DNA from: Bdellovibrionales bacterium
GTDB lineage: Bacteria; Bdellovibrionota; Bdellovibrionia; Bdellovibrionales; UBA840
Direction: 5' to 3'
NCBI GenBank assembly: GCA_037969075.1
Contig: JBBKWS010000173.1
Location: 1-13,645 of the forward strand
DNA length: 13,645 bases
Numbering within the stretch: position 1 is the stretch's first letter; each line of letters starts with the position of its first letter. Shown here in pieces: positions 1 through 13,645 of this stretch. The translations under genes and the position numbers were made by a program. The notes beneath the pieces were generated by a model. That model was given only the letters and a program-made list of their open reading frames with translations, had not been told where the DNA came from and did not search any database.

Positions 1-842
1 AACTCTTGCTCGATCTCTCTTGCTCTATTGACGGCTTTATTAAAGCTGGCGGCGATCAAGTTTTCAACTTCAAGGGATCTTAAGTGATTAAGCCCTGCGT
101 GCGTTGTACCTTTTTTAGAGGTAACTTGATTTTGTAGATCAGAAAGGCTCAATGACTTATTATCGACGGCCAGCTTTACACTTCCTAAAAATGTTTGTAG
201 CGCCATCTCTCTTGAGATACCAGCTGGAAAACCAGAAGCCTCTAACCAAGATTGCCAAACCATAATAAATTCATAAATAAATGCAGGCCCACTTGCACAT
301 GCTATCGTAAGCGCATTCATCTCATCTCCTTCTTCGACCGGAACTACCAGACCGAGAGGGCTTAAAAGATTTTCTGAAAGTTGTGCTAGCGTTTCGGACT
401 CATGAAGTAAACTATATCCAACAATTCCCTCTTGAATTTTAAGAGGAGTGTTTGGCATCCAGCGAATCAGTTGATCGGTTCCAGGGATAAGTGCTTTTAA
501 AGACTGAAGACTAACCCCTGCTGCCAAACTAATAACAATATGCTCTTTGGTAAAAAGACCTCGCACTGACTCTACTGCTGTGACTAAATCTTGCGGCTTG
601 ACGCCTAAAATTATAATTCCGCAGTTTTCAATTAGCTCAGCACTTGAACTGACTACTTGTAAGCCTGGAAACTCGGCCTGTAAAGCATGCAATTTTTCAG
701 GATTTCGATTGGTTACATAGATATCTTTTAAATCTATCACGCCTGCTTTTAAAAAACCTGAAAGTATGGATCTGGATAGGTTTCCCGCCCCTAAAACTCC
801 AATTTTTTTTGCTTTAATAAAACTATGAATCCATGTTTGCAT
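1..842 (-). CDS. proC: Pyrroline-5-carboxylate reductase (3' end runs off the window)
   Basis: Not in the ORF track; translated by hand from ATG at 842: MQTWIHSFIKAKKIGVLGAGNLSRSI... It has the Rossmann GxGxx motif and ProC motifs GVKPQ, SLAAG, RWMPNTP, ACASGPAF and VTSKKGTTHAGL. The frame is open to the window edge (...AVNRAREIEQE). SD GAGGT at 848-852 overlaps the maf stop codon. Confidence 0.95.
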   Translation of the reverse strand, partial: MQTWIHSFIKAKKIGVLGAGNLSRSILSGFLKAGVIDLKDIYVTNRNPEKLHALQAEFPGLQVVSSSAELIENCGIIILGVKPQDLVTAVESVRGLFTKEHIVISLAAGVSLQSLKALIPGTDQLIRWMPNTPLKIQEGIVGYSLLHESETLAQLSENLLSPLGLVVPVEEGDEMNALTIACASGPAFIYEFIMVWQSWLEASGFPAGISREMALQTFLGSVKLAVDNKSLSLSDLQNQVTSKKGTTHAGLNHLRSLEVENLIAASFNKAVNRAREIEQE

Positions 843-851
843 AAAATACCT

Positions 852-1442
852 CTATGAAATTTTCCAACCCTTGAGGGCAATCAACTCTAAAACTCTTTCT
901 ATAGGTAGTCCCATTATATTAAAAAATGAATTATCAAAAGAAGATACAAAAGATCTGCCAATTCCCTGAATGCCGTAAGCCCCAGCTTTATCATACGGCT
1001 CATCTGTCGATACATAGGACTCAACTTCATCATCTGTCAGTTTCTTAAACTCGACCTTAGACGTAATACACTCTGTTATAATTTCTTTTGTATCTAAATT
1101 CCAAAGGCAAAACGCAGTCTTAACCTCATGCGATCTGCCCGAAAGTCTGGTTAAATAGTTTTTTGCCTCGTTTTTATCGACGGGCTTGCCCAGAATATCT
1201 TTGTCTAAAACGACTACCGTGTCTGCCGCGAGAACTATTGATGGCCTAGACCAAAGACTTGCGTATTTATCAAAAACTGCACTAGCTTTACGTCTAGATA
1301 ATTCGCGAAGTGCATCATCCAAGCTCATATTTTCACTCAGATTTTCCGATATTTCTACTGAGAAAGTATGAAATGGAAGATTTGCATTTTTAAGAATTTC
1401 TTTACGTCTTGGTGATTTAGAAGCAAGGACTAACTGATACAT
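852..1442 (-). CDS. maf: Maf family nucleoside triphosphate pyrophosphatase, YhdE-type (dTTP/UTP)
   Basis: Motifs LASKSPRR, AADTVV, LGKP, LSGRSH, DKAGAYGIQG and NIMGLP. The SPRR / D-T / IQG residues match the YhdE subfamily rather than YceF. Confidence 0.95.
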   Translation of the reverse strand: MYQLVLASKSPRRKEILKNANLPFHTFSVEISENLSENMSLDDALRELSRRKASAVFDKYASLWSRPSIVLAADTVVVLDKDILGKPVDKNEAKNYLTRLSGRSHEVKTAFCLWNLDTKEIITECITSKVEFKKLTDDEVESYVSTDEPYDKAGAYGIQGIGRSFVSSFDNSFFNIMGLPIERVLELIALKGWKIS

Positions 1443-1465
1443 ATTTTCTCTAAAGGTTAGGTTAT

Positions 1466-2371
1466 ATGGGTTTAGCAGAAATTATTCTTTTCTTTAGCTT
1501 ACTGCTTTTAGGTATTTCTGTATATCTATTTGTGTCATTCTTCATGGGTGAAGGCGAAGAGCAATCTGCACTATCTTGGGCTTCAGGCGAAGAACCAGAA
1601 AAATCAAAATCAGGATTCATTGAGTTTTCTCGTCCTATAGCACATCGTTTCGCCTTAAACTTAGCAAAAAAAGTAACTAACAAAAGGTACCGAGATAATA
1701 CATTCAGAAATATCAAGGTGGCTGGCTTATCACGTGAATTAAATGTTGATGAGTTTATTAGTATACAGTTTTTATGGGGATTAATATTTCCTGTATTTTT
1801 ATTTATCTTGAATTTCGCCTTACAGTTAGGCTTCCACCCCTTCTTAATTATTTCTATGAGTATTGTAGGCGCGGCGTTTCCGATCATTCACTGTAACACT
1901 GAAAGAAAAAAGCGGTACCAGTCGGTTGTTATTGATCTACCATTTTTTATTGATCTCTTAGCGCTCTCGACTGAAGCTGGACTTGATTTTATCGGAGCTA
2001 TACAACGAGTTGTTGATAAAGCTGAAAACTCTGTCTTGGCTGATGAACTAGAAATCGTACTTCGAGATATTAAGCTTGGTCGATCTAGAAAAGAAGCTCT
2101 GCGTGATATGTCAGAACGACTTGAGATGTCAGAGATCACCAGTTTCATAGCGGTACTAGTAGATGCGGACTCCACTGGTGCCAGTATCGGAAAAGTTTTA
2201 AAGCAGCAATCGGAGCAAATGCGTATGGAAAGATTTTCTCGTGCAGAGAAAGCAGGGGCCAGAGCGTCGCAATTAATGCTTGTACCAATGATGTTATTTA
2301 TTATGCCAGCGATTTTTATAATGGTTTTTGGTCCTGTGATATTACAATTCATGGGTCAGGGAGGAAAGTAG
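1466..2371 (+). CDS. tadC: Tad pilus inner-membrane platform protein TadC (T2SSF family)
   Basis: Motifs LPFFIDLLALSTEAGLDFIGAIQRV, LGRSRKEAL, TGASIGKVLKQQSEQMRMERFSRAEKAG, and the C-terminal TM LVPMMLFIMPAIFIMVFGP. One N-terminal and two central TM segments. Confidence 0.92.
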   Translation: MGLAEIILFFSLLLLGISVYLFVSFFMGEGEEQSALSWASGEEPEKSKSGFIEFSRPIAHRFALNLAKKVTNKRYRDNTFRNIKVAGLSRELNVDEFISIQFLWGLIFPVFLFILNFALQLGFHPFLIISMSIVGAAFPIIHCNTERKKRYQSVVIDLPFFIDLLALSTEAGLDFIGAIQRVVDKAENSVLADELEIVLRDIKLGRSRKEALRDMSERLEMSEITSFIAVLVDADSTGASIGKVLKQQSEQMRMERFSRAEKAGARASQLMLVPMMLFIMPAIFIMVFGPVILQFMGQGGK

Positions 2372-2372
2372 T

Positions 2373-2714
2373 TTGCTATTACGTAATTTACATTCTGATC
2401 AAATCATAAGTGAACATGTGGATGTAGCCACAAGTTTTACTTCAAGATTTTTTGGACTAATGGGAAAAAAATCTATAGAGCCAAAGCAATGTCTATGGAT
2501 AACCAAATGTAATAGTATACATACTTGTTTTATGAGATTTACTATCGATGTTGTATTTTTAGATAGTGATATGAAAGTTATCGCAATAAAAGAAAAAATT
2601 AAGCCGTGGAAATTTACATGGCCAGTAATGAATGCAAAATCAGTGTTAGAGTTTTACGAACAGAACATTGGTTTAAAAATGAAACTTGGAGATCAATTGC
2701 ATGTGGGCAATTAG
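2373..2714 (+). CDS. DUF192 family protein
   Basis: Signature VATSFTSRFFGLMG...CNSIHTCFMRFTIDVVFLD...KPW...AKSVLE. TTG start lies 1 nt after the tadC stop, with SD GGAGG at 2360-2364. Confidence 0.88.
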   Translation: MLLRNLHSDQIISEHVDVATSFTSRFFGLMGKKSIEPKQCLWITKCNSIHTCFMRFTIDVVFLDSDMKVIAIKEKIKPWKFTWPVMNAKSVLEFYEQNIGLKMKLGDQLHVGN

Positions 2715-4266
2715 AATTTTAAACGGAGCATTAGCAGGAAAGACCTATTCCCTGAAAGAGGGGGATAACTATATAGGTCGTGGAGCACAAGCGGACATCC
2801 GCTTGCAAAGCACCGGTGTATCCAAGGATCATTGCGTAATTCATGTAAATGGCAACAAAATCATTCTTTTGGATAAAAATTCTAGTAATGGTACATTTGT
2901 TAATGGATCTAAAATAGCACAAAAACAATTAAACAATGGTGATAAAATTGGGATACATGACGTGCTTGCAGATGTGCAATACAACGTCATTCCTTTTCCA
3001 AAAATGAATCAGCAAACTTCAAACAGCTTTTCAGAAAATGCAGGAAACTTTAATCCTACAGAGAATATGTATGAGCAAGGTGATCTAAACAATCAGCAGT
3101 CTGTGACTAAAGCTCCGACGAATCTAAAAGAAAGTATAGAAGTATATATAGACAACGTAGTAATGCCAGCTATCTATAGATTAATCGAAGTTTTCGAAAT
3201 GAAATGGGTTCTTGGATCGTTTGTGCTAGGCTTTATACTATTAGTTACCAGTCTGTCCATGATACCTATGATGCAAATTACTAAACGTGGAATAGAAAAA
3301 GAAAGTCAACGAAGAGCTCTTACCATTGCTAGAAATATCGCAAATATTAATGGTAGACTTTTAGAGCAAGGACTAACTGGATCATTAAGCGTGGCCTCTG
3401 CCAGCAGAGAAGAAGGTGTAAAGCTTGCCGTGATTGTAGATGCAAAGACTAGTCAGATTATTGCACCAGCGAGTAAAGTTGGTACATTTGAAAACAATCC
3501 TTTTATTAACACAATCCGTAGTAAACCTTATGAATTTGTGAACAATCTAGGTAGCAGTACCATTGGAGCAAGTGTTCCTATGCAAGCCTACAACGCTGAA
3601 TTACAAACAGCCACAGTGGCTGCCTACGCTGTTGTTATATATGATATAGGTGCACTAAGCATGGATGATGGACAAACACTTAGTTTGTTTGTACAAACTT
3701 TAGCGATAGCACTAATACTGGGATATATTCTGTTCTATTTTATGTATAGAATTATTGAAAAACCAATTTATGAGCTAAATAGATCCATTGACGATGCCTT
3801 GAAGCAAACAGGTTCGGTAACAAATAAATACATCTTCCCTATCTTACAACCATTGATTGTGAATATTAACAGTTTACTCAATCGATCTAGTTCAAATACC
3901 GAATCAGGCACCTCTTTCTTTGTTGATAGAAACTCAGAGGCGCAAAATATTGTTAGACTCTTTGAGGGACCAAGTTTTGCTGTAAATAAGGATCTACAAA
4001 TCATTGATTGCAATTTAGGTTTTGAAAATCTAACTGGAATTATATCCGGTAACATTCAGCAACAAAGCCTAGATAGACTAAATGATCAAGCTTTGATTTT
4101 AAGTATACAGGATCTAATTGAGAGAGCTAAAATGCAACCTAACTTAATAGCTAGTAATGCTATTGAGTTTAATGGCAATTCAATGGAAATTGACATCCAA
4201 GCTATCAGCTCAGACAAAGAAATTGTGTACTATGTCTTTAGTATTAAGACCGGAGGTATTGCATAA
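2701..4266 (+). CDS. Inner-membrane protein with FHA, TM, periplasmic domain, TM, HAMP-like and PAS-like regions
   Basis: Start reassigned to ATG 2701 (SD GGAGA 2688-2692; MWAIRILNG). Canonical FHA motifs IGRG, VSKDH and SSNGTFVNG. TMs WVLGSFVLGFILLVTSLSMIPMM and LFVQTLAIALILGYILFYFMY. HAMP-like RIIEKPIYELNRSID and PAS-like GPSFAVNKDLQIIDCNLGFENLTG. Confidence 0.85.
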   Translation: MWAIRILNGALAGKTYSLKEGDNYIGRGAQADIRLQSTGVSKDHCVIHVNGNKIILLDKNSSNGTFVNGSKIAQKQLNNGDKIGIHDVLADVQYNVIPFPKMNQQTSNSFSENAGNFNPTENMYEQGDLNNQQSVTKAPTNLKESIEVYIDNVVMPAIYRLIEVFEMKWVLGSFVLGFILLVTSLSMIPMMQITKRGIEKESQRRALTIARNIANINGRLLEQGLTGSLSVASASREEGVKLAVIVDAKTSQIIAPASKVGTFENNPFINTIRSKPYEFVNNLGSSTIGASVPMQAYNAELQTATVAAYAVVIYDIGALSMDDGQTLSLFVQTLAIALILGYILFYFMYRIIEKPIYELNRSIDDALKQTGSVTNKYIFPILQPLIVNINSLLNRSSSNTESGTSFFVDRNSEAQNIVRLFEGPSFAVNKDLQIIDCNLGFENLTGIISGNIQQQSLDRLNDQALILSIQDLIERAKMQPNLIASNAIEFNGNSMEIDIQAISSDKEIVYYVFSIKTGGIA

Positions 4267-5186
4267 GCCAAACTGCTGTAAACACCTCAGGAATAGCCTT
4301 CTTATTGAAAGTACAAAATGGTACTGACATGGGAGTGGTATATCAAATGGCTGGCGATAGCCTTAAACTAGGTCGGGCAGATGATAATGACATTATTGTT
4401 AAAGACAATAAGTGCAGTCGCTATCACGCAGTTCTTGAAATGAAAGAGCATGGTCTTGTAATAAAAAATGTTAGTAGCAATAACCGCATTTTTGTAGATG
4501 GCCTAGAGGTCAATGAAACCCTTTTACAGCCAAATGCAATTATAAAATTAGGCGACACTGAGATACAATTATTTGTAAGCGGACTAGAGGCTTTGGCTGT
4601 AGCGCCAGATATGCCCGCTGACCTTGCAATGCCGACAGCGGCTCCACTAAAAAAGAAAAACCCTCTTTTTTATGCATATATAGCAATCGCAGGTATTGGC
4701 CTTTATTTACTTCTATCAGATGGAGCTACTGAAGCCCCAGACAAAGCATTAAATGATGATGGAAAAATTCAAACTGAAATTGTTGAGGCGCAAAAAATTA
4801 CAGAACAATTACAAAATTTAAAATACACCTCAGGCAGAGACTCTAAACAATACTTGGATGCACAAGAAGAATACCTAAAAGGATTCAGAGATTACCGAGA
4901 AGGTAATTACTCCAGATCAATCACCTCATTTCAAGCGGCATTGGCGCTATATCCAAAGCATGAACTTGCTAGAAAATATGAAATCTTGTCAAAAAGAAAG
5001 TTGGATGAGTCAATCCAAGCTTCTATGCAAGAAGGAAATCGCTACATGGAGCAAGGTAGATACAATGAAGCTATTTCATCTTATAGAAACGTTATGATAC
5101 TTATAAAATCGCCGGATAACTTAACTTATAAAGAAGCAAAAGCTAAGTATGACCAAGCACAGGCCATTATCGAAGGAGATTTCTAA
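4263..5186 (+). CDS. FHA-TM-TPR membrane protein (start either ATA 4263 or TTG 4305)
   Basis: FHA motifs LGRADDNDI and CSRYH, with a variant SNNRIFVDG. Pro/Ala linker, then KKK followed by TM PLFYAYIAIAGIGLYLLL. TPR-like helices YLKGFRDYREGNYSRSITSFQAALALYP and GNRYMEQGRYNEAISSY. The stop overlaps the next start (TAATG). Confidence 0.85.
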   Translation: MSQTAVNTSGIAFLLKVQNGTDMGVVYQMAGDSLKLGRADDNDIIVKDNKCSRYHAVLEMKEHGLVIKNVSSNNRIFVDGLEVNETLLQPNAIIKLGDTEIQLFVSGLEALAVAPDMPADLAMPTAAPLKKKNPLFYAYIAIAGIGLYLLLSDGATEAPDKALNDDGKIQTEIVEAQKITEQLQNLKYTSGRDSKQYLDAQEEYLKGFRDYREGNYSRSITSFQAALALYPKHELARKYEILSKRKLDESIQASMQEGNRYMEQGRYNEAISSYRNVMILIKSPDNLTYKEAKAKYDQAQAIIEGDF

Positions 5187-7132
5187 TGGCTAAGTTGACG
5201 ATTTTTGTAAATTCAAAAGAATTAGACACCTTAACTCTAGATGAAAGCAAAGAGTACATCATTGGACGCGCTAGTGATGCTGATATTAAAATCAGGGATA
5301 CAACATTTTCTAGAAAACATTTGCGACTATATTTTGAAGCTGGATGGAAAATCGAATGTTTATCAAAGTTCGCTGATATCCAGTCTCCTGCTGGCCAAAC
5401 AAAACAGTTAGATTTAACAGAAACCGTAGACTTTATGGTGTCACAATATCGGTTTTCATTTCAAATAGAGCCTAGTGATCATGCTAGCAGCGCTTTAGAG
5501 TTCGATGTTGAAGAGGATTATTTAGAAGATTCTGCCCCTGCCAATGAAAAATTAATAGAGGAAGAAGATACAGATGTGAATTTTCAAGTCACACAGCCCT
5601 ATTTAACAATTACCTTTGCTGATAAAGCTGTAAACAAGCTTAAGCTAGAGGGCTCCGAGTGGAGCATCGGTAGAACCGATGAGTCTATTGTACAAATAGA
5701 TGATACGAAAGCGAGTCGTAAACATTGCCAAATCACTAAAGATGGAAACACCTTTTTTGTTATGGATCTAGGAAGTTCAAACGGCACATATTTAAATCGT
5801 AGACGAATGAAAGCTAACAAAATCGCCCCTCTCAATGGTGGTGATGTTATCAGAATAGGAAGCACACAACTAGTATTCGAAATGATTGATGAATCTTTTC
5901 AATCAAAACTTATGAATGTGCCCGCCGTGAAATCGCAACTACCAGCAGTGGCGGCACAGCCGCAAAACCCTTATGCCGCACTACAAATCAGACAACCTGG
6001 TGAGCTGCAGGCACAAGGTGCTGTAAGAATATTTAATCCGCAAACTAATAAAAAAGCAGATAAGAAAAAATTTATTGCTATATTCTGCGTCGTTATTGCT
6101 TTACTAGCATATCTACTTAAGGGAGAAAAAGCTGGTACAAAAAATGGCACTAAAAACTTAGCATCAAATGTTGAACAACGCTCTCCATTTGAATTGCTAT
6201 CGAAAGATAATAAAGATTTAGTCATACGTTTTTATGACCAAGCATATAAGCTATACATTCAAGGTAACTATGAGTTAGCTCTGAGTGAAACAAGAAAGAT
6301 ACACCGTTTATTACCAGAGTCTGGATATTTAGATTTGGCAGTTGAGAAAGATTCTAAAGATTTAGAAAAATTGATCACGGTAGCCATAGAATTGAATCGT
6401 CAAAAGCAAGTAATACAGCGCAGTCAAGAGCAACAACAACAACTTATTGAAGAAGTTAATACGATCGTTAATCGTTGCAATACAATGGCAAGGCCTGGAA
6501 CGAATATCCAGTCAGCCAGAGCCTGCCTTTCGCCTGCACTAGAATTAGATCCCGAAAATCAAAAAGCAGCCCTTATTATCGCAAGACTTGAGGCAGAAGA
6601 AGAGAGCAGACGCGCACTAGCCTCTCAAAGAGCCTATACAGAGGGACAAATTAATAAGGGTGAGGATCTTTATCAATCTGCTGTTAACCTAGAGAAAAAG
6701 GATAAGCTGTTAGATGCCATCGCCGCATACAATAGACATATCGCCTCTACACTGCCTGATCCAGGCAACTTAAAAGAGAAATCAAAAGAGCGAAAACAGC
6801 AAATCTCTATTGAGCTAAAAAAACGTATAGATGTATTAATGAAAGAAGCTACAACAGACTATGAATCAAAAAACTATAAAGATTCTATTGCAAAATTAAC
6901 CAAAGCCTTAAGACTTGATCCGTCCGTACAAGAAGCTAAGGATTTACTTGGATCAGTCACAAATGATCTAAATAAAAACATGAAAACTATTTATAGCGAT
7001 TCAGTACTAGAAGAATCTCTTGGAAACATAGAGTCTGCAAAATCATTATGGAAAAAAATCTTAGATACTGACGTTGCTTCTGGCGACTATTATAGAAAAG
7101 CAAATTCTAAACTTAAGAAGTATGGTAGGTAG
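5186..7132 (+). CDS. FHA-FHA-TM-TPR membrane protein
   Basis: FHA1 has IGRAS and FSRKH but lacks the N-G-T motif. An acidic linker follows. FHA2 is canonical (IGRT, ASRKH, DLGSSNGTYLN). KKK precedes TM FIAIFCVVIALLAYLL. Periplasmic TPR/coiled-coil region includes ALELDPEN and ALRLDPS. Confidence 0.88.
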   Translation: MAKLTIFVNSKELDTLTLDESKEYIIGRASDADIKIRDTTFSRKHLRLYFEAGWKIECLSKFADIQSPAGQTKQLDLTETVDFMVSQYRFSFQIEPSDHASSALEFDVEEDYLEDSAPANEKLIEEEDTDVNFQVTQPYLTITFADKAVNKLKLEGSEWSIGRTDESIVQIDDTKASRKHCQITKDGNTFFVMDLGSSNGTYLNRRRMKANKIAPLNGGDVIRIGSTQLVFEMIDESFQSKLMNVPAVKSQLPAVAAQPQNPYAALQIRQPGELQAQGAVRIFNPQTNKKADKKKFIAIFCVVIALLAYLLKGEKAGTKNGTKNLASNVEQRSPFELLSKDNKDLVIRFYDQAYKLYIQGNYELALSETRKIHRLLPESGYLDLAVEKDSKDLEKLITVAIELNRQKQVIQRSQEQQQQLIEEVNTIVNRCNTMARPGTNIQSARACLSPALELDPENQKAALIIARLEAEEESRRALASQRAYTEGQINKGEDLYQSAVNLEKKDKLLDAIAAYNRHIASTLPDPGNLKEKSKERKQQISIELKKRIDVLMKEATTDYESKNYKDSIAKLTKALRLDPSVQEAKDLLGSVTNDLNKNMKTIYSDSVLEESLGNIESAKSLWKKILDTDVASGDYYRKANSKLKKYGR

Positions 7133-7133
7133 T

Positions 7134-7796
7134 ATGCTAAAAGAAAAATCCTACCGCACTAAAGAATCAAAGTTTCCGACGGCCAAACTATCTTTTGAGC
7201 AGAATGACAATCTACTTATTGCTGTTTGGTCTTGGGGGGCTGCCGATGGTGGACCAAAAGCATTAGACATCATTAAGGACTACTACTTATCTGCAAGAAC
7301 AGATATAGAGGCCACATCACCATTTCCACTAAATCCTGATCTAAGCTTATCCGCCAATCACTTACGAATCGGTGTAATGCTTGCCAATGATATCATTGCA
7401 AAAGAAAATAATAATGAAGAGTACACTACTGGAATCGAAGTAATTTGCATGTCTAAAAATAAAAAAGAAGTTAGCTTTGTACATGTTGGTGGCCCATCAT
7501 TAATTAGCCTTAGGGAAAATCAATCTCCTGTAACCTACATACAGCAAAGCCAGTTAGGAAATGAATTTGACTTTAAAGTCACATCTCCACTTCCAAGAGA
7601 GTTATTAGGAATAAAACCTAGGCAGAATGTAATATGTAAAAGCATCAGAACTTTAGAAAAAGAACGATTTCTATTGGTCCAAAGAAACTATATGCCACAA
7701 TTAACACAGGAAAATAATACTCTAGAAAAAATAGAGGCTGAACTAATCAGGGACAATAAGGATTTGCCATTTTGGATTTGCGAATTTACATTTTAA
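7134..7796 (+). CDS. Degenerate PP2C/PPM-fold protein (putative pseudo-phosphatase)
   Basis: Start reassigned to ATG 7134, 1 nt after the upstream stop; ATG 7122 is also possible. Collinear PP2C blocks: LLIAVWSWGAADGG, EATSPF..LS..ANHLRIGVMLANDII, FVHVGG, RELLG and ERFLL. The metal-binding Asp residues are not visible. Confidence 0.7.
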   Translation: MLKEKSYRTKESKFPTAKLSFEQNDNLLIAVWSWGAADGGPKALDIIKDYYLSARTDIEATSPFPLNPDLSLSANHLRIGVMLANDIIAKENNNEEYTTGIEVICMSKNKKEVSFVHVGGPSLISLRENQSPVTYIQQSQLGNEFDFKVTSPLPRELLGIKPRQNVICKSIRTLEKERFLLVQRNYMPQLTQENNTLEKIEAELIRDNKDLPFWICEFTF

Positions 7797-8371
7797 CGTA
7801 CTTTTTTATAATACCGCTTACGATCGCGGTCCCAATGGTAGGCGATCCCTACAAATAATTGCGCCCCTATACCACTATCCCCCGAAAGATTCGCAACAAC
7901 AGCTAGCTCAGTTCTAATCGCAAAATTTGAATTAACAAACATATAGTCCAAACCAACAAATCCTCTAAGCCCAAATAAGAAGTCGTCTTCTTCATCACCA
8001 TCGCCAACTTCCTTACCTAAAACTAAGCCTGGGCCATAATAGAAGTAAGCTGAATTCCAAAAATCTTTGGACTTAATTTTATCTCTAGCATCGTAATAAT
8101 AAAATACGTAGTTAAACTGACCCAAAACTTGCTCTTTGGTATGATAAGCAAAATCTAGATTATACGCTGATTTTGAACTAAGGTACTTTTGATACCTTAC
8201 GCCTGATGGCTGTCCCAACAATAGCTCTATAGATTTTTCACCAGGCTGAAACCCTATGAGTTTTCTGATAACTTTTGGTTCAGATTTAGCATTGTCATTG
8301 TTTACTGGTTTCCGAGCGAAAGAAATTGCAGGTAATAATAAAAAAATTAAACTAATATACAACTTTTTCAT
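7793..8371 (-). CDS. Small outer-membrane beta-barrel protein (DUF3996-like)
   Basis: Signal peptide MKKLYISLIFLLLPAISFA. LLLGQPSGVRYQKYL...AYNLDF resembles the LGxPTG motif of DUF3996-like barrels. Alternating amphipathic strands YFYYGPGLVLG, FGLRGFVGLDYMF and AQLFVGIAYHW. Confidence 0.7.
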   Translation of the reverse strand: MKKLYISLIFLLLPAISFARKPVNNDNAKSEPKVIRKLIGFQPGEKSIELLLGQPSGVRYQKYLSSKSAYNLDFAYHTKEQVLGQFNYVFYYYDARDKIKSKDFWNSAYFYYGPGLVLGKEVGDGDEEDDFLFGLRGFVGLDYMFVNSNFAIRTELAVVANLSGDSGIGAQLFVGIAYHWDRDRKRYYKKVR

Positions 8372-10169
8372 ACTGAACCAGCTCCATTCTTCTCTTAATA
8401 ACGGTATAGTAGGTTCTGTATTTATTCAAAGATAAAATTAAATCACTTGCACTTGGTCCTGCAGGATACCTAAGACTCATATCCCAAGAAAGGTCGGCGA
8501 TATAATTTAATTTATACATACTATCGGATATACTTTTTTCTAAATAATGACGAATAAATAATTCTCTAAATCTATCTCTTCTTTGCGTTCTCTCATGCAC
8601 CCACTTATAAAGCAGGTCCAACTGCGGATCAGTACATGACACAGGAGAAATACGGTTCTTAATGGGGTTCTCGGTTTGCAAAAACTGTAAAAAGCATGGA
8701 TCGTGCAGGTTTTCCCAATCCTCCGTAACCAAAATCCCTAAATTAAATTTTGCAGTAAAAATCCATAGTGAATTATTAGCCTTATTTCCTGCTTGCAATA
8801 GTAAATCCCATTTTTCTTGTTTAATTGCTAGCGTTGCAAGCCATTCCATAACTTGTAGATCTTGTGTGGCTTCAAATATATTAAAAAAGTCTTTTGGGTT
8901 CTGCTCTAAATCAAAAGGATCCCAAAGTTTGCGAGCAAGCTTCCATTTTAATATTTTCATTTCATCAATATGTTCCCACGCTTTAATTCCTAAACTATTA
9001 ATCCACGCCTGGATTTTATTATCAAGTGGCTGTCCCCAATTAGTAACTTGCGGATTAGTTTCCATCTGATCAATCAAATTATTATAGGTATAAATTTTTT
9101 CATCAAAAATGTAATTATAGTTTCCATTCCTAAGTGAAAACCGTGATGTCGAATAATTTTTCCACTGCGGCCATGCTGATTCAACCATAATCCATCGATC
9201 TGAATCCGCTTCAGAGTAATCTTTATTAAAAATATTCTTCAATACAAACATGCTATCGTTAGGCTGCATATCATTTTGCACAAACAAACTATGCCCTAAA
9301 TCCACTAATGAATAATTGTAATCAACTTTCCAACTGTGGCCTAAATCACGCTTTTTATCGCTAGGCTTAAAATAAAATGCAACTTTTGTATTCTCTGAAT
9401 GTAAGTTGTAGGCATCCATCTCATTCTTGCGAAATGCTTCTCCCTTCCCATTCAATCCAAACACAATGATGTTGGTTTTATGCCAAAGATCGCGTTTTTT
9501 AAGGGCACTAGACATATAACCTATAGAATCTAATAAAGAGCCATACTGCCCATCATAAGTACTCTCTCTCTTCAATCCCTCTTCATCCTGAGTAGAGATA
9601 GATGGAAAAAGAAGGTCAGGCAGATAAACTACCGCAAAAAATGGTTTTGATGGCTCATTATCCAACCAATCAAAATAGGCATTCAAAGATTTTTTAGCTG
9701 GACGATAGTATGAATTCCAATGCATTGGAAAAGTGTCATCAAAATAACTAAACCCCTGAGCTAGACCTGATTTACGCCAAATGGCTCCACCACCAGAAAA
9801 AAAAGCTGTTCGCCAACCCTTTTTAAAAAGTAGCTCGGGCGCGGTAACAAATGACTCTTTTAAATAAACATTTCCATTATGCCAGACCTTGTGTTCATTG
9901 GGATACAAACCAGTAAGAACAGAGGCCAATGCCGCTTGTGATTGCGTAGAAGGCGTATACATGTGAGTAAATCGAATTGCTTCGTTACACAACAGGTCAA
10001 AAGCTTCCTTAGATTGATCGACTGTAATGGTCTGTGAACACAAACTGCCTGTAAAGGGCAGTTTTTCAACAGCAATCAATAAATAAGAAGGTTTTTCGCT
10101 ATGATCCGGCGAACATCCCAATACACACAAAAGTAATGCTACAAAAGTCTGGCGAAAGACGCGTCCCAA
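8352..10169 (-). CDS. Sulfatase-like (alkaline phosphatase superfamily) lipoprotein with a degenerate active site
   Basis: TTG start with SD AGGAG and lipobox-like LLCVLGC. Sulfatase scaffold motifs KPSYLLIAVE, FTHMYTPS, ASVLTGLYPNEH, GWRTAFF, GLAQGFSYFDD, KPFFAVVYL and YNNLIDQMETNP. Helical C-terminal extension. Overlaps the barrel gene by 20 bp. Confidence 0.8.
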   Translation of the reverse strand: MGRVFRQTFVALLLCVLGCSPDHSEKPSYLLIAVEKLPFTGSLCSQTITVDQSKEAFDLLCNEAIRFTHMYTPSTQSQAALASVLTGLYPNEHKVWHNGNVYLKESFVTAPELLFKKGWRTAFFSGGGAIWRKSGLAQGFSYFDDTFPMHWNSYYRPAKKSLNAYFDWLDNEPSKPFFAVVYLPDLLFPSISTQDEEGLKRESTYDGQYGSLLDSIGYMSSALKKRDLWHKTNIIVFGLNGKGEAFRKNEMDAYNLHSENTKVAFYFKPSDKKRDLGHSWKVDYNYSLVDLGHSLFVQNDMQPNDSMFVLKNIFNKDYSEADSDRWIMVESAWPQWKNYSTSRFSLRNGNYNYIFDEKIYTYNNLIDQMETNPQVTNWGQPLDNKIQAWINSLGIKAWEHIDEMKILKWKLARKLWDPFDLEQNPKDFFNIFEATQDLQVMEWLATLAIKQEKWDLLLQAGNKANNSLWIFTAKFNLGILVTEDWENLHDPCFLQFLQTENPIKNRISPVSCTDPQLDLLYKWVHERTQRRDRFRELFIRHYLEKSISDSMYKLNYIADLSWDMSLRYPAGPSASDLILSLNKYRTYYTVIKRRMELVQYEKVVY

Positions 10170-10225
10170 GCTTGCTCCTATTCTTCTTTCAAGAGATACT
10201 ATAACAAAAAAAACACGAGGTATAT

Positions 10226-10852
10226 ATGCTTACTGAAAATTTATTTCGAATCGCGCAATACGGTGCAGAATCAATTCTATATCTTTTACTTATTCTTAGC
10301 GTGATTAGCGTATCAATTATCTTAGAACGCTTCTTTACACTTCGTGGCGTTAGGGCTCGCAGTCGGAAGGTGCAAATTAAAATAGAAGACGCCTTAGTCT
10401 CCAACCACCTATCGGATCTTGAGCATATCAGTAGTTCACGTGACTCTATAGAGGCAAAAGCCCTGTCTTATGGTATCAGGTACGTAAAAGACAATGGTCC
10501 CACAGGTGTTGCCGAGGTCTTTAATTCATTTGCTATTATTGAAAAGCAAAAACTTGAAAAATCATTAAACTTTCTAGGCACTATTGGTTCAAATGCTGTG
10601 TTTATCGGTCTTCTTGGTACCGTACTTGGTATTATGAAAGCATTTAAAGATTTAGGTGTGAGCCAAGGGGATGTTTCAATGGTTATGACCGGAATTGCAG
10701 AGGCTCTTACAGCTACTGCCATTGGTCTTTTTGTGGCAATTCCTGCTGTTATTGCTTACAACTACTTTCAAAAGCAAGTTAAGATTATCGTCAGTAGCGT
10801 AGAGAGCGTGAGAGAACTTTGTATTGCTTACGCTAATCAGAAGGAAAAATAG
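10226..10852 (+). CDS. exbB: MotA/TolQ/ExbB proton-channel family protein
   Basis: Three TMs; motifs [25 protein letters not shown] and [33 protein letters not shown] upstream. Confidence 0.9.
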
Positions 10853-10854
10853 TC

Positions 10855-11259
10855 ATGGCTTCTAAACTAGGCGGAGACAATGATGATCCAATAGTAGATA
10901 TTAACATCACTCCCTTTGTGGACGTGATCTTGGTTGTACTAATTATATTCATGGTTACTACTCCCATGTTAGTAAACCAAAGCATACAAATACAGCTGCC
11001 TAAAGCTGTTACTGGTGAAGATACTCCCCCCACGAATATTCAACTCACCATCTCTAAAGAGGGTGATGTTTATGTGGATGGAAAAAAAGTTAATGAAGAT
11101 GAAATTGAAAATATAGCGAAAGAAAAAATTTCATTTAATTCTAATGTGCAAGCATCTATTGCCGCTGATCAGAACACCACTCATGGTCAAGTAATCAGAG
11201 TCATTGATTTGATCAAAAAAGGTGGTATTCATAAATTTGCCATTAGCACTACAAAATAG
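10855..11259 (+). CDS. exbD: ExbD/TolR family protein
   Basis: DINITPFVDVILVVLIIFMVTTP contains the conserved TM Asp. Also IQLPKA and IAADQNTTHGQVIRVIDLIKKGGI. Confidence 0.92.
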   Translation: MASKLGGDNDDPIVDINITPFVDVILVVLIIFMVTTPMLVNQSIQIQLPKAVTGEDTPPTNIQLTISKEGDVYVDGKKVNEDEIENIAKEKISFNSNVQASIAADQNTTHGQVIRVIDLIKKGGIHKFAISTTK

Positions 11260-11270
11260 GAATTAAACAA

Positions 11271-12653
11271 TTGCAACAAACATCGACATTACAAAAAGCA
11301 TTTGAAATAAACTTAGAGCCAACCATATACGGAACATTTGCGGAAATTGGCGCTGGTCAAGAAGTAGCTAGACAATTTTTTGAAGCCGGAAAAGCTTCAG
11401 GAACCGTTGCCAAGACTATCTCAGCTTACGACATGGTATTTAGTGACAGCATTTATGGTAAAGAAAAAACAGGTCGCTATGTCTGCCAAAGTCGAGTTGA
11501 AAAAATGCTGTCCTACGAATTTGATCTATTGATAGAGCGTCTTAAAACAACCAGAGGTGATTCTACCAACTTCTTTTCGTTTGCAAACACCGTAACCACC
11601 GGTAGTAAATCTAGAAACATAGACTCGCACGGCTGGATTGGCGTTCGTTTTCAATTAAAACCCAATGGACCAGTTAATCAAATCGTAGCACACATTAAAA
11701 TGAAAAATAGATCGAACAGCCTTCAGCGTGAAGCTCTAGGTATTGTTGGGGTTAATTTAATTTATGCGGCTTTTAATCACACGGATAATCCCGAACAGTT
11801 CATCTTGTCGCTGATAGACAATCTTGATACCTCTCGAATCGAGATGGATATGATAGATTTTCAGGGAGATGATTTAAAACATATCGACAACCGTTTGATG
11901 AGTTTAAAGTTAGTGGCAAATCATCTTACCAATGCCGCCCTATTTTCACCCGAAGGCAAGGTTTTGCATATAGCTGATGTCTTATTTAAAAAACCCCTAG
12001 TTCTTTTACGCGGAAGCTTTTCGCCAGTAACTAATATCCATGTGGATATGATTGGTTCTGCCCTAAAGCAAATCAAGAGCGCCACCAAAGAAACACCTGT
12101 AGTATTTTTAGAACTTACTATTCATGACTTAATTCAGGATGGAGAGTTTAAAAATGCCAACTTCTTAGAAAGAGTAGATGTACTACAAACCCTAGGGCAT
12201 CCAGTTTTAATCAGTAATTTCTTTTTATTTTTTGAACTTAAAAAATATCTAGAGAAATTTACCACAGAGACTATATCAATGATAATGGGCGCCAATCTTT
12301 TATCTAAGCTTTTTGAAGAAGAATTTTATAAAAATGTAAACGGTGGTCTATTAGCTGGAATCGGACAGCTGACAGAGGGTAATTCTAAAATACTAATATA
12401 CCCGTTTAAAAAATCTGACACTGCCATGCTTACTTTGAGTAATTATAAGCCAGCGCAAAGTTCTTCTCAAATATTTGAACATCTAAAACAAAAAGATGTA
12501 TTTACTGAACTAGACTGTCTTGAAGTGTGTAAAGAAATCCACTCTGAGAATATTTTAACTATGATAAAAAATAAAGACGCCTCTTGGGAAAATTTTGTTC
12601 CAAAGAAAGTAGCGTCTTTGATTAAAGATCGAAAATTGTTTGGCTATAAATAA
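11271..12653 (+). CDS. Cytoplasmic two-domain protein: CinA-C-like N-terminus plus NadD/NMNAT-like nucleotidyltransferase
   Basis: N-terminal INLEPTIYGTFAEIGAGQEVARQFF..GKASGTVAKTISAYDM. C-terminal LLRGSFSPVTNIH is a (T/H)xxH nucleotidyltransferase motif, and the end WENFVPKKVASLIKDRKLFGY is NadD/NadM-like. No signal peptide. TTG start with AGGA at 11258-11261. Confidence 0.7.
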   Translation: MQQTSTLQKAFEINLEPTIYGTFAEIGAGQEVARQFFEAGKASGTVAKTISAYDMVFSDSIYGKEKTGRYVCQSRVEKMLSYEFDLLIERLKTTRGDSTNFFSFANTVTTGSKSRNIDSHGWIGVRFQLKPNGPVNQIVAHIKMKNRSNSLQREALGIVGVNLIYAAFNHTDNPEQFILSLIDNLDTSRIEMDMIDFQGDDLKHIDNRLMSLKLVANHLTNAALFSPEGKVLHIADVLFKKPLVLLRGSFSPVTNIHVDMIGSALKQIKSATKETPVVFLELTIHDLIQDGEFKNANFLERVDVLQTLGHPVLISNFFLFFELKKYLEKFTTETISMIMGANLLSKLFEEEFYKNVNGGLLAGIGQLTEGNSKILIYPFKKSDTAMLTLSNYKPAQSSSQIFEHLKQKDVFTELDCLEVCKEIHSENILTMIKNKDASWENFVPKKVASLIKDRKLFGYK

Positions 12654-13043
12654 TTACTTTTTAAATAGTAGTTTTATTGTATTTGAATACGGTTTTGCAA
12701 AAAACGATAGATACACCATCAATATTACAATCACGATTGCTATTGGCAGACCACTTGGTTGCAAAAAGGCATGAACCATAAAAATGTTTAGAGCGATAGG
12801 CGCAAGTACTACTAAAGCCAATGGCACAAACCTGCCTGATAATAATAAGGCACCACAAACTATCTCGGTGATTTTTAATAATGGAAAGAAATAAACACTC
12901 GCTATCAATCCCCCCATAAATACCATCAAACTCTCTGGCATATCCGGTGGAGGTGGTATTAGATTAAATAACCCTGCAATTCCGAAGATAAAAAATACTA
13001 GACCCAGTAAAATTCGTGCGATTAACGGAAGTTTTGCTTTCAT
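12654..13043 (-). CDS. DoxX family membrane protein
   Basis: ARILLGLVFFIFG, YFFPLLKITEIVCGALLLSGRFVPLALVVLAPIALNIFMVH; four TMs. SD AGGAG at 13052-13056. Confidence 0.9.
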   Translation of the reverse strand: MKAKLPLIARILLGLVFFIFGIAGLFNLIPPPPDMPESLMVFMGGLIASVYFFPLLKITEIVCGALLLSGRFVPLALVVLAPIALNIFMVHAFLQPSGLPIAIVIVILMVYLSFFAKPYSNTIKLLFKK

Positions 13044-13079
13044 GATGTTTTCTCCTATGTAAATAGGATGATAGACTTT

Positions 13080-13098
13080 AAATCTTGTGACAAGGTTT
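13080..13098. promoter_or_regulatory. Palindromic putative operator upstream of the DoxX gene
   Basis: AAAtCTTGT-G-ACAAGgTTT, a 19-bp dyad with one mismatch, 37-55 bp upstream of the DoxX start codon. Confidence 0.35.
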
Positions 13099-13154
13099 TA
13101 GCTGCTTACACATTGGTGTCAGCGAAGCTTCGCGTTAAATCTCCCACCATATCC

Positions 13155-13229
13155 GCCAACCGAATTAGATGTCCGTTAATACCGACCTTAAAAATCCGTA
13201 GGCCCAAATACTCGCATCTAATTTTTGGC
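13155..13229 (-). ncRNA. Candidate structured RNA (75-nt rod-like hairpin; possible antisense RNA or DoxX leader)
   Basis: Outer stems GCCAA/UUGGC and AAUUAGAUG/CAUCUAAUU. The inner stem AGUAUU-(UG)-GGCCU / AGGUC-GGUAUU needs four G-U pairs that exist only on the - strand. Confidence 0.3.
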
Positions 13230-13259
13230 ACAAACTTGCAATAGAGAGCTTGCTGCAAG

Positions 13260-13285
13260 AAAAAACCCCGCCTGAAAGGAGGGGT
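13260..13285 (-). terminator. Hairpin that reads as an intrinsic terminator on the - strand and as an SD-sequestering stem on the + strand
   Basis: On the - strand: ACCCCtCCT-TTC-AGGcGGGG followed by TTTTTT. It lies about 160 nt downstream of the phnA stop. Confidence 0.5.
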
Positions 13286-13288
13286 AAA

Positions 13289-13393
13289 ATGATCTATAAA
13301 GACTATAGATTGTTTCGGATTGTTATTAGGATACTTGAGTTAATAATTAAGATTTTGAAAATTATTTTAATACTTAAACTTTTGGGCTTATAG
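13289..13393 (+). CDS. 34-aa cationic amphipathic peptide, candidate type I toxin (MIYKDYRLFRIVIRILELIIKILKIILILKLLGL)
   Basis: Below the ORF-track cutoff. Perfect SD AAAGGAGG (13275-13282) 6 nt before ATG 13289, TAG at 13391-13393. 20 of 34 residues are I/L/V, and charged residues 7, 10, 14, 17, 21 and 24 show helical periodicity. Confidence 0.65.
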   Translation: MIYKDYRLFRIVIRILELIIKILKIILILKLLGL

Positions 13394-13444
13394 ATAATTC
13401 GCTGCCATGCTCTTTTAATCTGGATGGGGTTTTCTCTTGTGGCA

Positions 13445-13645
13445 CTATACTTTTTTAACAAATTCAGATTTTAGATTGATCGATCCAATTCCATCAATTT
13501 TGCACGCAATATCATGCCCATCACCGGCGTCCATTATTCGGATATTTTTTACTTTAGTACCCACTTTTACTGCCGAAGTAGAGCCTTTGATTCTTAATTC
13601 TTTAATCACTGTTACGGTATCACCCGTTACTAATAGGTTCCCAAA
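13445..13645 (-). CDS. phnA: PhnA/YjdM family protein, C-terminal part (5' end outside the window)
   Basis: Not in the ORF track; translated by hand: [66 protein letters not shown], matching the PhnA/YjdM C-terminal domain. Confidence 0.93.

Follow-up and report, generated by a model that had tools for sequence, protein, structure and literature searches.

Near one end of the window analyzed here (13,645 nucleotides, the whole of contig C173 of the source genome, G000), a conserved long-range RNA duplex is predicted to close a ~195-nt mRNA of an unannotated 34-aa peptide ORF. We consider it probable that this cassette is a member of a Bdellovibrionales-wide type I toxin-antitoxin-like family, in which a sigma54-dependent mRNA would be off at every stage, a FliA-dependent antisense RNA would act as the antitoxin, and activation would come from a 5' event or from assisted melting. 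The ORF, the duplex, the promoter-like sites, and the antisense hairpin are established by sequence comparison (Table 1). The cassette family is real and conserved, and it is apparently undescribed.

Table 1. Coordinates of the cassette elements in the window.
Feature	Position	Strand	Details
21-bp genus-specific repeat (motif 2)	13117..13137	+	10 copies in G000, 4 in G001 (the only other genome of the genus)
Sigma54-like -24/-12 site	13222..13242	+	GG 13227-28, GC 13238-39; GG-N9-GC
Duplex 5' arm, predicted mRNA 5' end	13251..13272	+	starts 12 nt after the -12 C
Parts of the 5' arm	13251-13264; 13265-13272	+	toehold, mostly unpaired in nascent RNA; anti-SD1
Predicted ~47-nt antisense RNA, candidate antitoxin	13258..13304	-	5' tail against the AUG region, then terminator hairpin over the SD
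Co-transcriptional SD-hiding hairpin	13265..13285	+	SD GGAGG 13278-13282 (SD region 13278-13285)
AUG-hiding hairpin	13287..13315	+	13287-13298 with 13304-13315
ORF of 34-aa basic, hydrophobic, amphipathic single-helix peptide, candidate type I toxin	13289..13393	+	unannotated
FliA/sigma28-type promoter inside the ORF	13313..13338	-	-35 TCAAG (13338-13334), -10 CCGAAA (13318-13313)
Invariant 3'-UTR block with anti-SD2	13401..13416	+	anti-SD2 13408-13416; 15 invariant columns in 4 copies
Duplex 3' arm, predicted mRNA 3' end	13422..13444	+	pairs with 13251-13272

Conservation of the duplex and of the cassette family

The two arms of the duplex form 21 pairs with one A-C mismatch and one bulge, at -29.0 kcal/mol on the plus strand and -25.9 kcal/mol on the minus strand. 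Three of the plus-strand pairs are G-U, and the A-C mismatch turns into a single G-U pair on the minus strand. Similarly, the fold of 13245-13450 has a z-score of -5.95 on the plus strand (0 of 200 shuffles) and -2.67 on the minus strand. With 25-nt ends, the duplex reaches -30.2 kcal/mol, and none of 5000 random genomic 194-mers is as strong (best, -22.8 kcal/mol), which confirms the 21-pair interaction proposed in a preliminary description of this DNA. That description also favored a plus-strand RNA structure over a DNA repeat, and the homologues agree: a duplex of -19 kcal/mol or stronger is present in 75 of 79 cassettes with enough flank versus 7 of 137 ordinary control genes, the sense strand forms the more stable duplex in 57 of these 75 and the antisense strand in 9, and G-U pairs number 140 versus 35. 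Moreover, covariation, which had been suggested as a check, was found in the 26 main-family sequences, where a 13-bp helix is 97.6% paired with seven pairs changed on both sides, while sliding the helix partners leaves only 33-50% paired. The four close copies, the window cassette included, show two-sided change in 2 of 60 pairs and are too few sequences to test; among nine more distant, later-found members, eight have the duplex. Collectively, the covariation identifies the duplex as a conserved RNA helix.

The same comparisons make it extremely improbable that the cassette is a DNA element bounded by terminal inverted repeats (a MITE or REPIN-like element). The arms begin with TG and end with CA, the copies are scattered, and a site may lack its cassette or carry a different one. 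The preliminary description had named dispersal with target-site duplications as the mark of a MITE; the dispersal is there, but no target-site duplication occurs in any of four flanks, and conservation runs ~30 nt outside the arms, so that this reading fails. Additionally, arms that are wholly different between members are nevertheless paired, with a G-U bias to one strand, and the peptide ORF is under purifying selection (family dN/dS 0.44, 24 disjoint pairs).

The window peptide is predicted to be helical from residue 3 to residue 32 (pLDDT 87.6), with a maximum 19-aa hydropathy of 2.52 and a net charge of +5. Family peptides are 31-44 aa long with a median net charge of +5, and a hydrophobic 19-mer is present in 79 of 81; their predicted mRNAs span 195-308 nt, the window's cassette combining 195 nt with 34 aa. 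These sizes lie within the 20-60 aa of hydrophobic type I toxins and the 150-400 nt of their mRNAs, as given in PMC8594479. The G001 copy (L002 1574-1669) is three codons shorter, at 31 aa, with all RNA elements intact. The C24 peptide is weakly hydrophobic, and some members are more amphipathic than transmembrane. Two other ORFs, a 47-aa extension from TTG 13250 and a 58-aa ORF at 13068-13244, were rejected as lacking an SD or family support.

Close copies of the window cassette, forming subfamily A with it, lie on C176 and C76 of G000 and once in G001, thus in 2 of 61 genomes. The repeat upstream of these copies led to a second subfamily, B, in G000 (on C86, on C24, and one copy divided between C169 and C141), through which cassettes in other families of the order were reached. 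The count of six cassettes in G000 is an upper bound, and they may not all belong to one organism, since contamination of the assembly is 5.7% and its contig C108, 84% identical over 13.1 kb to window positions 1-13138, represents a co-binned relative. Tandem copies occur in G053, G085, G210, and G003; intergenic, multi-copy, or tandem loci are also a trait of type I systems. Of 384 genomes of the order, 48 had matches to a 12-peptide profile, and a wider 68-peptide profile matched 40 of 401 genomes of the phylum, 39 of them within the order and the remaining one weakly, with an internal stop. In total, 81 distinct cassettes were collected from 30 returned loci and 40 further regions, the weakest listed matches being left out; the members are kin, so their counts overstate independence and significance.

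In sequence databases, the family DNA motif was found in 20 named records, all from Bdellovibrio sp. or Pseudobdellovibrionaceae, and 10 proteins match the family, all unnamed or "hypothetical". Searches of the peptides against Pfam, NCBIfam, PHROGs, and PDB sequences gave no relevant match, and neither the window nor 14 homologous loci reached the Rfam gathering score (nine sub-threshold matches). DNA patterns of the window's subfamily were not found in viral contigs, none of their 39 metagenome matches was real, and a four-sequence profile had no match among 1.84 billion representatives. The family motif had a single chance match in viral contigs, in a tRNA-like stretch beside an integrase.

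The cassette lies between a DoxX gene (12654-13043, minus strand) and the 3' end of a convergent yjdM (phnA) gene (minus strand), whose stop codon at 13445 adjoins the 3' arm. The 21-bp repeat precedes five of the six G000 cassettes. It occurs in G000 on C24, C76, C86, C108 (two copies, plus a partial one at the contig end), C125, C142, C176, and C192, in G001 on C80, C143, C422, and C424, and in none of five other family genomes. Homology of the window contig to C108 and to C422 of G001 stops at this repeat; the position of the window's A-type cassette is taken in C422 by one of B type, and C143 of G001 is the empty site of the C76 cassette. Based on these comparisons, gain, loss, or exchange of cassettes takes place at a variable site marked by the repeat. 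The repeat may serve in recombination, or it may bind an activator ~100 bp upstream of the sigma54 site. Elsewhere in the window, the gene of a 460-aa protein with a weak, below-cut-off nucleotidyltransferase-like match (11271-12653) overlaps the stop region of the DoxX gene, end to end. The region 1466-7796 holds in one run a TadC-like gene, DUF192, three FHA(/TPR) proteins, and a phosphatase-like ORF (by eye), an arrangement resembling typical pilus/signalling clusters of predatory bacteria.

Predicted sense and antisense transcription

Canonical sigma54 promoters have the spacing GG-N10-GC. Of 79 homologues, 49 have a canonical site 6-18 nt ahead of the 5' arm (chance expectation 0.7%), and the scan found none in 25; a sigma54 site is present in eight of the nine more distant members. 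In homologues, the duplex starts 12-15 nt after the sigma54-type site. The window's subfamily is one base below the canonical spacing, with GG-N9-GC in all four close copies and a variable spacer sequence, and short -24/-12 spacing normally kills sigma54 promoters. G000 encodes an RpoN domain, and 20 of its 21 canonical N10 sites are intergenic. No sigma70 promoter signal above chance was found on either strand of the locus. Since the sigma54-like site lies just before the 5' arm, the transcript should start at the arm, and the window transcript probably begins at ~13251. A start at 13084 was rejected, as homology begins at ~13220. Inverted CCG...CGGACA motifs, possibly enhancer-binding-protein sites, lie 40-60 bp upstream of sigma54 sites (L178, L179, L190, L184; window 13150-13190). 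GG-N9-GC also occurs upstream of an ORF on C152 of G000 (position 1103) that is RelE/HigB-type by eye.

On the opposite strand, the coding sequence itself points to a promoter. The sole invariant residue of the peptides is an arginine, and its codon is CGG in 68 of 80 members, compared with 21 of 170 other arginine codons and 2.9% genome-wide. Together with the preceding codon, this CGG gives the minus-strand sequence CCGA(T/A)A, and T(T/A/C)AA lies 16 nt upstream of it. FliA promoters of B. bacteriovorus are described as TTAAG-N16-CCGATA and account for 92 of 140 attack-phase promoters (PMC3627812); the cassette spacing is one base below that consensus and equals that of the mapped promoters Bd0606 and Bd0760 (PMC3627812). 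A score of at least 9/10 is reached in 53 of 81 ORFs, whereas 200 synonymous recodings gave a mean of 22.5 and a maximum of 32, and a spacing of 16 scores best. The -10 element ends 21 or 24 nt after the A of the AUG in 60 members. The window site scores 8/10, and FliA is encoded in G000. Among the nine distant members, two pass the strict score, and most keep a weaker site in the same place.

The putative antisense RNA also has a conserved end. In 45 of 46 homologues, at least five pairs of a hairpin draw on bases upstream of the predicted sense start, and this hairpin is therefore excluded from the mRNA. The minus strand gives the better fold (29 versus 3), with at least five U following in 35. 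On the minus strand of the window, the SD hairpin reads as a hairpin with a U-tract, that is, the predicted antisense terminator, and the C176 variant keeps its closing pair on the minus strand only. The U-tract overlaps the -12 element, so these two constraints are not independent. The antisense RNA predicted in the window is short (47 nt, z = -2.6), while those of the main family would be ~90-100 nt long with two hairpins (z = -4.4 and -5.8). The 5' tails in the window's subfamily are predicted to pair at -23 to -25 kcal/mol with cognate targets and at -8 to -21 kcal/mol with non-cognate ones. Collectively, the antisense promoter and terminator are supported statistically, and the RNA itself is predicted. 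By eye, the cassette RNA does not resemble the seven APsRNAs and the merRNA presented in PMC3627812.

Predicted locks on the ribosome-binding site

The folding results are equilibrium predictions without pseudoknots, proteins, or kinetics, and the order of the folds and their accessibility are likewise predicted. Without the 3' arm, the local SD hairpin forms with a probability of 1.00; in the full-length RNA this falls to 0.00 and the long-range pairing reaches 1.00. The preliminary description had recognized a segment of the duplex, here placed at 13265-13272, as also the anti-SD arm, regarded the two folds as mutually exclusive, and taken the nascent RNA to be off. The predictions bear out all three points, with an opening cost without the 3' arm of 11.2 kcal/mol for the SD and 17.0 kcal/mol for the SD-to-AUG region. 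It had further proposed that completion of the 3' end would strip the anti-SD and expose the SD. The stripping is reproduced, and the costs fall to 7.1 and 12.3 kcal/mol; the exposure is not, because anti-SD2 recaptures the SD, with a probability of 0.81 in the window RNA and 0.66-0.97 across the four close copies, and the AUG remains within its hairpin (0.97 and 0.97-0.99, respectively). The switch thus replaces a strong lock with a weaker one. In 150 ordinary genes, opening costs have medians of 2.8 (SD) and 5.6 kcal/mol (SD-AUG) and 95th percentiles of 7.3 and 11.6 kcal/mol, so the full-length window RNA stands at about the 95th percentile. Compared with these controls, the ribosome-binding site (RBS) is predicted to be sequestered at all lengths, as expected of type I systems. 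In the AUG hairpin, the loop (13299-13303) differs between paralogues, and stem changes are one-sided (U-G/U-A, G-U/G-C).

These values also bear on an alternative in which the full-length RNA is itself translated, the duplex serving as an anti-anti-SD in a timP-like manner without processing and 3' trimming switching the message off. We regard this as unlikely. The full-length RNA is the most open unprocessed form in subfamily A, and among the 52 members with a located promoter and duplex, completion of the 3' end lowers the SD cost by more than 1 kcal/mol in 28 and raises it in 4, with medians of 8.3, 7.0, and 5.6 kcal/mol from nascent to full length. Additionally, a second covarying helix in the main family takes the base of the SD hairpin (73% paired, four of six pairs changed on both sides), and the active fold of timP is also less stable than its SD hairpin, at -7 versus -11 kcal/mol as reported in PMC13000454. 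However, the SD is recaptured and the AUG paired in all four close copies, opening remains near the 95th percentile of the controls, the full-length SD opens for less than 2 kcal/mol in 1 of 52 homologues, anti-SD2 is invariant, and subfamily B shows no change, its long duplex leaving the SD hairpin and anti-SD untouched.

Trimming was simulated from both ends. None of the 3' cuts, made in 5-nt steps in 13 members, reached the SD-AUG control median, and 3' trimming of the window copy tightens it to 17 kcal/mol. In contrast, 5' trimming of the window copy by 20-24 nt lowers the costs to 1-3 and 5-7 kcal/mol. The polarity opposite to hok and aapA that had been suggested for this RNA is therefore retained in part: 3' trimming is predicted to re-lock the message, but the full-length form is predicted not to be on.

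Some further 3'-UTR elements were observed. No covariation was seen for a pseudoknot joining the 5' U-rich linker to the conserved 3'-UTR loop (545 of 2000 shuffles). In subfamily B and the main family, the 3' UTR (A6 columns 262-276) contains a hairpin (96% paired) whose 7-nt loop, of the CUNAAAA type, is conserved. This hairpin may be a protein- or RNA-binding site and is absent from the window's subfamily. After a flagellin gene of G000 (C152 950-1005, L181) lies a short element of hairpin and U-tract. Its 5' part complements the 3'-UTR block conserved in both subfamilies, and the element is predicted to lower SD opening in subfamily A to ~3 kcal/mol. It was not found in five related genomes, so it was treated as a probable remnant and set aside as a trans-activating RNA.

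Under the toxin-antitoxin reading that we prefer, transcription of both RNAs, repression, toxicity, and the activation route are suggested by analogy. As judged from motif and position, sigma54 polymerase would start the mRNA at ~13251, at a site whose spacing in the window's subfamily is one base short. During synthesis, the SD and AUG hairpins, both predicted and conserved, would block initiation. The emerging 3' end would pair first with the free 5' toehold and then displace anti-SD1, whereupon anti-SD2 would catch the SD. The RNA is predicted to end up closed and probably stable, still off but 4-5 kcal/mol easier to open. A further event would then be needed for activation, 3' trimming being predicted not to work; the likeliest would be a 5' cut removing anti-SD1, or ribosome- or protein-assisted melting of the weak, G-U-rich SD:anti-SD2 helix. 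The FliA-driven antisense RNA would start in codons 5-6, end at the terminator hairpin, bind the AUG/SD region of its own copy, and block or destroy the message. By analogy only, the peptide may insert in the inner membrane and arrest growth once antisense synthesis stops.

The same architecture could instead serve a non-toxic small membrane protein under antisense control, either a phase-specific regulator or a prey-acting peptide, with the fold providing mRNA stability and dosage; we find this very doubtful. The peptides match no toxin family in the four databases searched, the more amphipathic members have been mentioned, alternative sigma factors on both strands suit developmental control, and among the candidates of Fozo 2010, YhzE-2 has an antisense RNA and is described as not toxic. 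However, triple locking of the RBS, paralogue-specific antisense tails, and a patchy multi-copy spread with gain and loss at hot spots are typical of toxin modules, and the nearest neighbor of the peptide in a language-model atlas is DinQ (0.78, a lead only).

Comparison with known systems and biological meaning

The comparison with hok and aapA drawn in the preliminary description was in the right neighborhood, and a second anti-SD, an AUG hairpin, and an antisense unit are now predicted in addition. As described for aapA/IsoA of Helicobacter pylori, successive SD-hiding hairpins give way to a 5'-3' duplex with a distal anti-SD, and several chromosomal copies exist (PMC5416894, PMC6733600). 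The cassettes share with it the ~200-290-nt mRNA, the ~30-40-aa peptide, the several chromosomal copies, and paralogue specificity in loops (PMC5416894, PMC6733600). They are also predicted to share an antisense RNA inside the mRNA over the ORF start and 5' UTR, with its promoter in the ORF (PMC5416894, PMC6733600, PMC8594479), and metastable hairpins replaced by the duplex and distal anti-SD in a silent full-length RNA. In contrast, the antisense promoter described there is TATAAT, whereas sigma54-type and FliA-type sites occur here; the predicted window antisense RNA is one hairpin and a tail, the two-hairpin form being that of the main cassette family; and 3' trimming, which activates aapA, is predicted to re-lock the cassette RNA. 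Homology to aapA/IsoA was not detected in the searches of Pfam, NCBIfam, PHROGs, PDB sequences, and Rfam. Because of the 3'-trimming prediction and this lack of detected homology, we do not file the cassette under aapA/IsoA.

Similar to hok/Sok as described in PMC9841398, the cassette is predicted to have a 5'-3' stem in the full-length RNA, a metastable nascent hairpin, and a short antisense RNA with a single-stranded 5' tail. According to the same source, hok/Sok needs mok and 3' trimming (PMC9841398), whereas the cassette has no mok leader, the only upstream in-frame start, at 13250, preceding the predicted transcript start. Furthermore, none of 68 cassette peptides matched Hok in Pfam, and no fold was found with the anti-SD trapped by a 5' element once the 3' end is trimmed. 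In timPR, as reported, long-range pairing also removes the anti-SD arm of the SD hairpin without processing; both timP partners belong to a long, pseudoknot-containing 5' UTR, and the SD becomes free (PMC13000454). It is therefore a precedent for activating long-range pairing, but within a 5' UTR: in the cassette, the partner is the 3' end, the 5' UTR has 38 nt, a second anti-SD recaptures the SD, and the predicted antitoxin overlaps in cis. Finally, tisB, dinQ, and zorO likewise encode a short amphipathic helix, and 5' processing, as reported for tisB (PMC13000454), is the route that opens the RBS in the cassette trimming scans. Their antisense genes are described as upstream and non-overlapping (PMC8594479), unlike here, and the cassette peptides have no Pfam match.

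We found no description of the cassette family in the openly accessible literature. The article text of T1TAdb does not mention Bdellovibrio (PMC8594479), and for strain HD100, Fozo 2010 gives no known type I loci and one 54-aa candidate, Bd3114. The unannotated multi-copy cassettes appear to form a new toxin-antitoxin family that may be linked to the predator life cycle. Their RNA would add a third solution to the problem of activating a locked toxin mRNA, because the 3'-trimming route is predicted not to work. A stronger version, in which the family is wired to the predatory cycle with reverse polarity, is in our view quite improbable: sigma54 would make a locked, stable peptide mRNA that is licensed by its own 3' end and turned off by 3' trimming, and attack-phase FliA would make the antitoxin. 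If such wiring were true, the peptide would appear on leaving the attack phase, arresting the predator or acting on the prey membrane.

Cultured Bdellovibrio species commonly carry this unannotated family, and it is open to direct testing: the antisense promoter should be silenced by exchanging a single codon for a synonymous one, as in the work on IsoA1. Should the link to FliA hold, the cassette would provide a concrete handle on the attack/growth switch of predators that have been proposed as living antibiotics.
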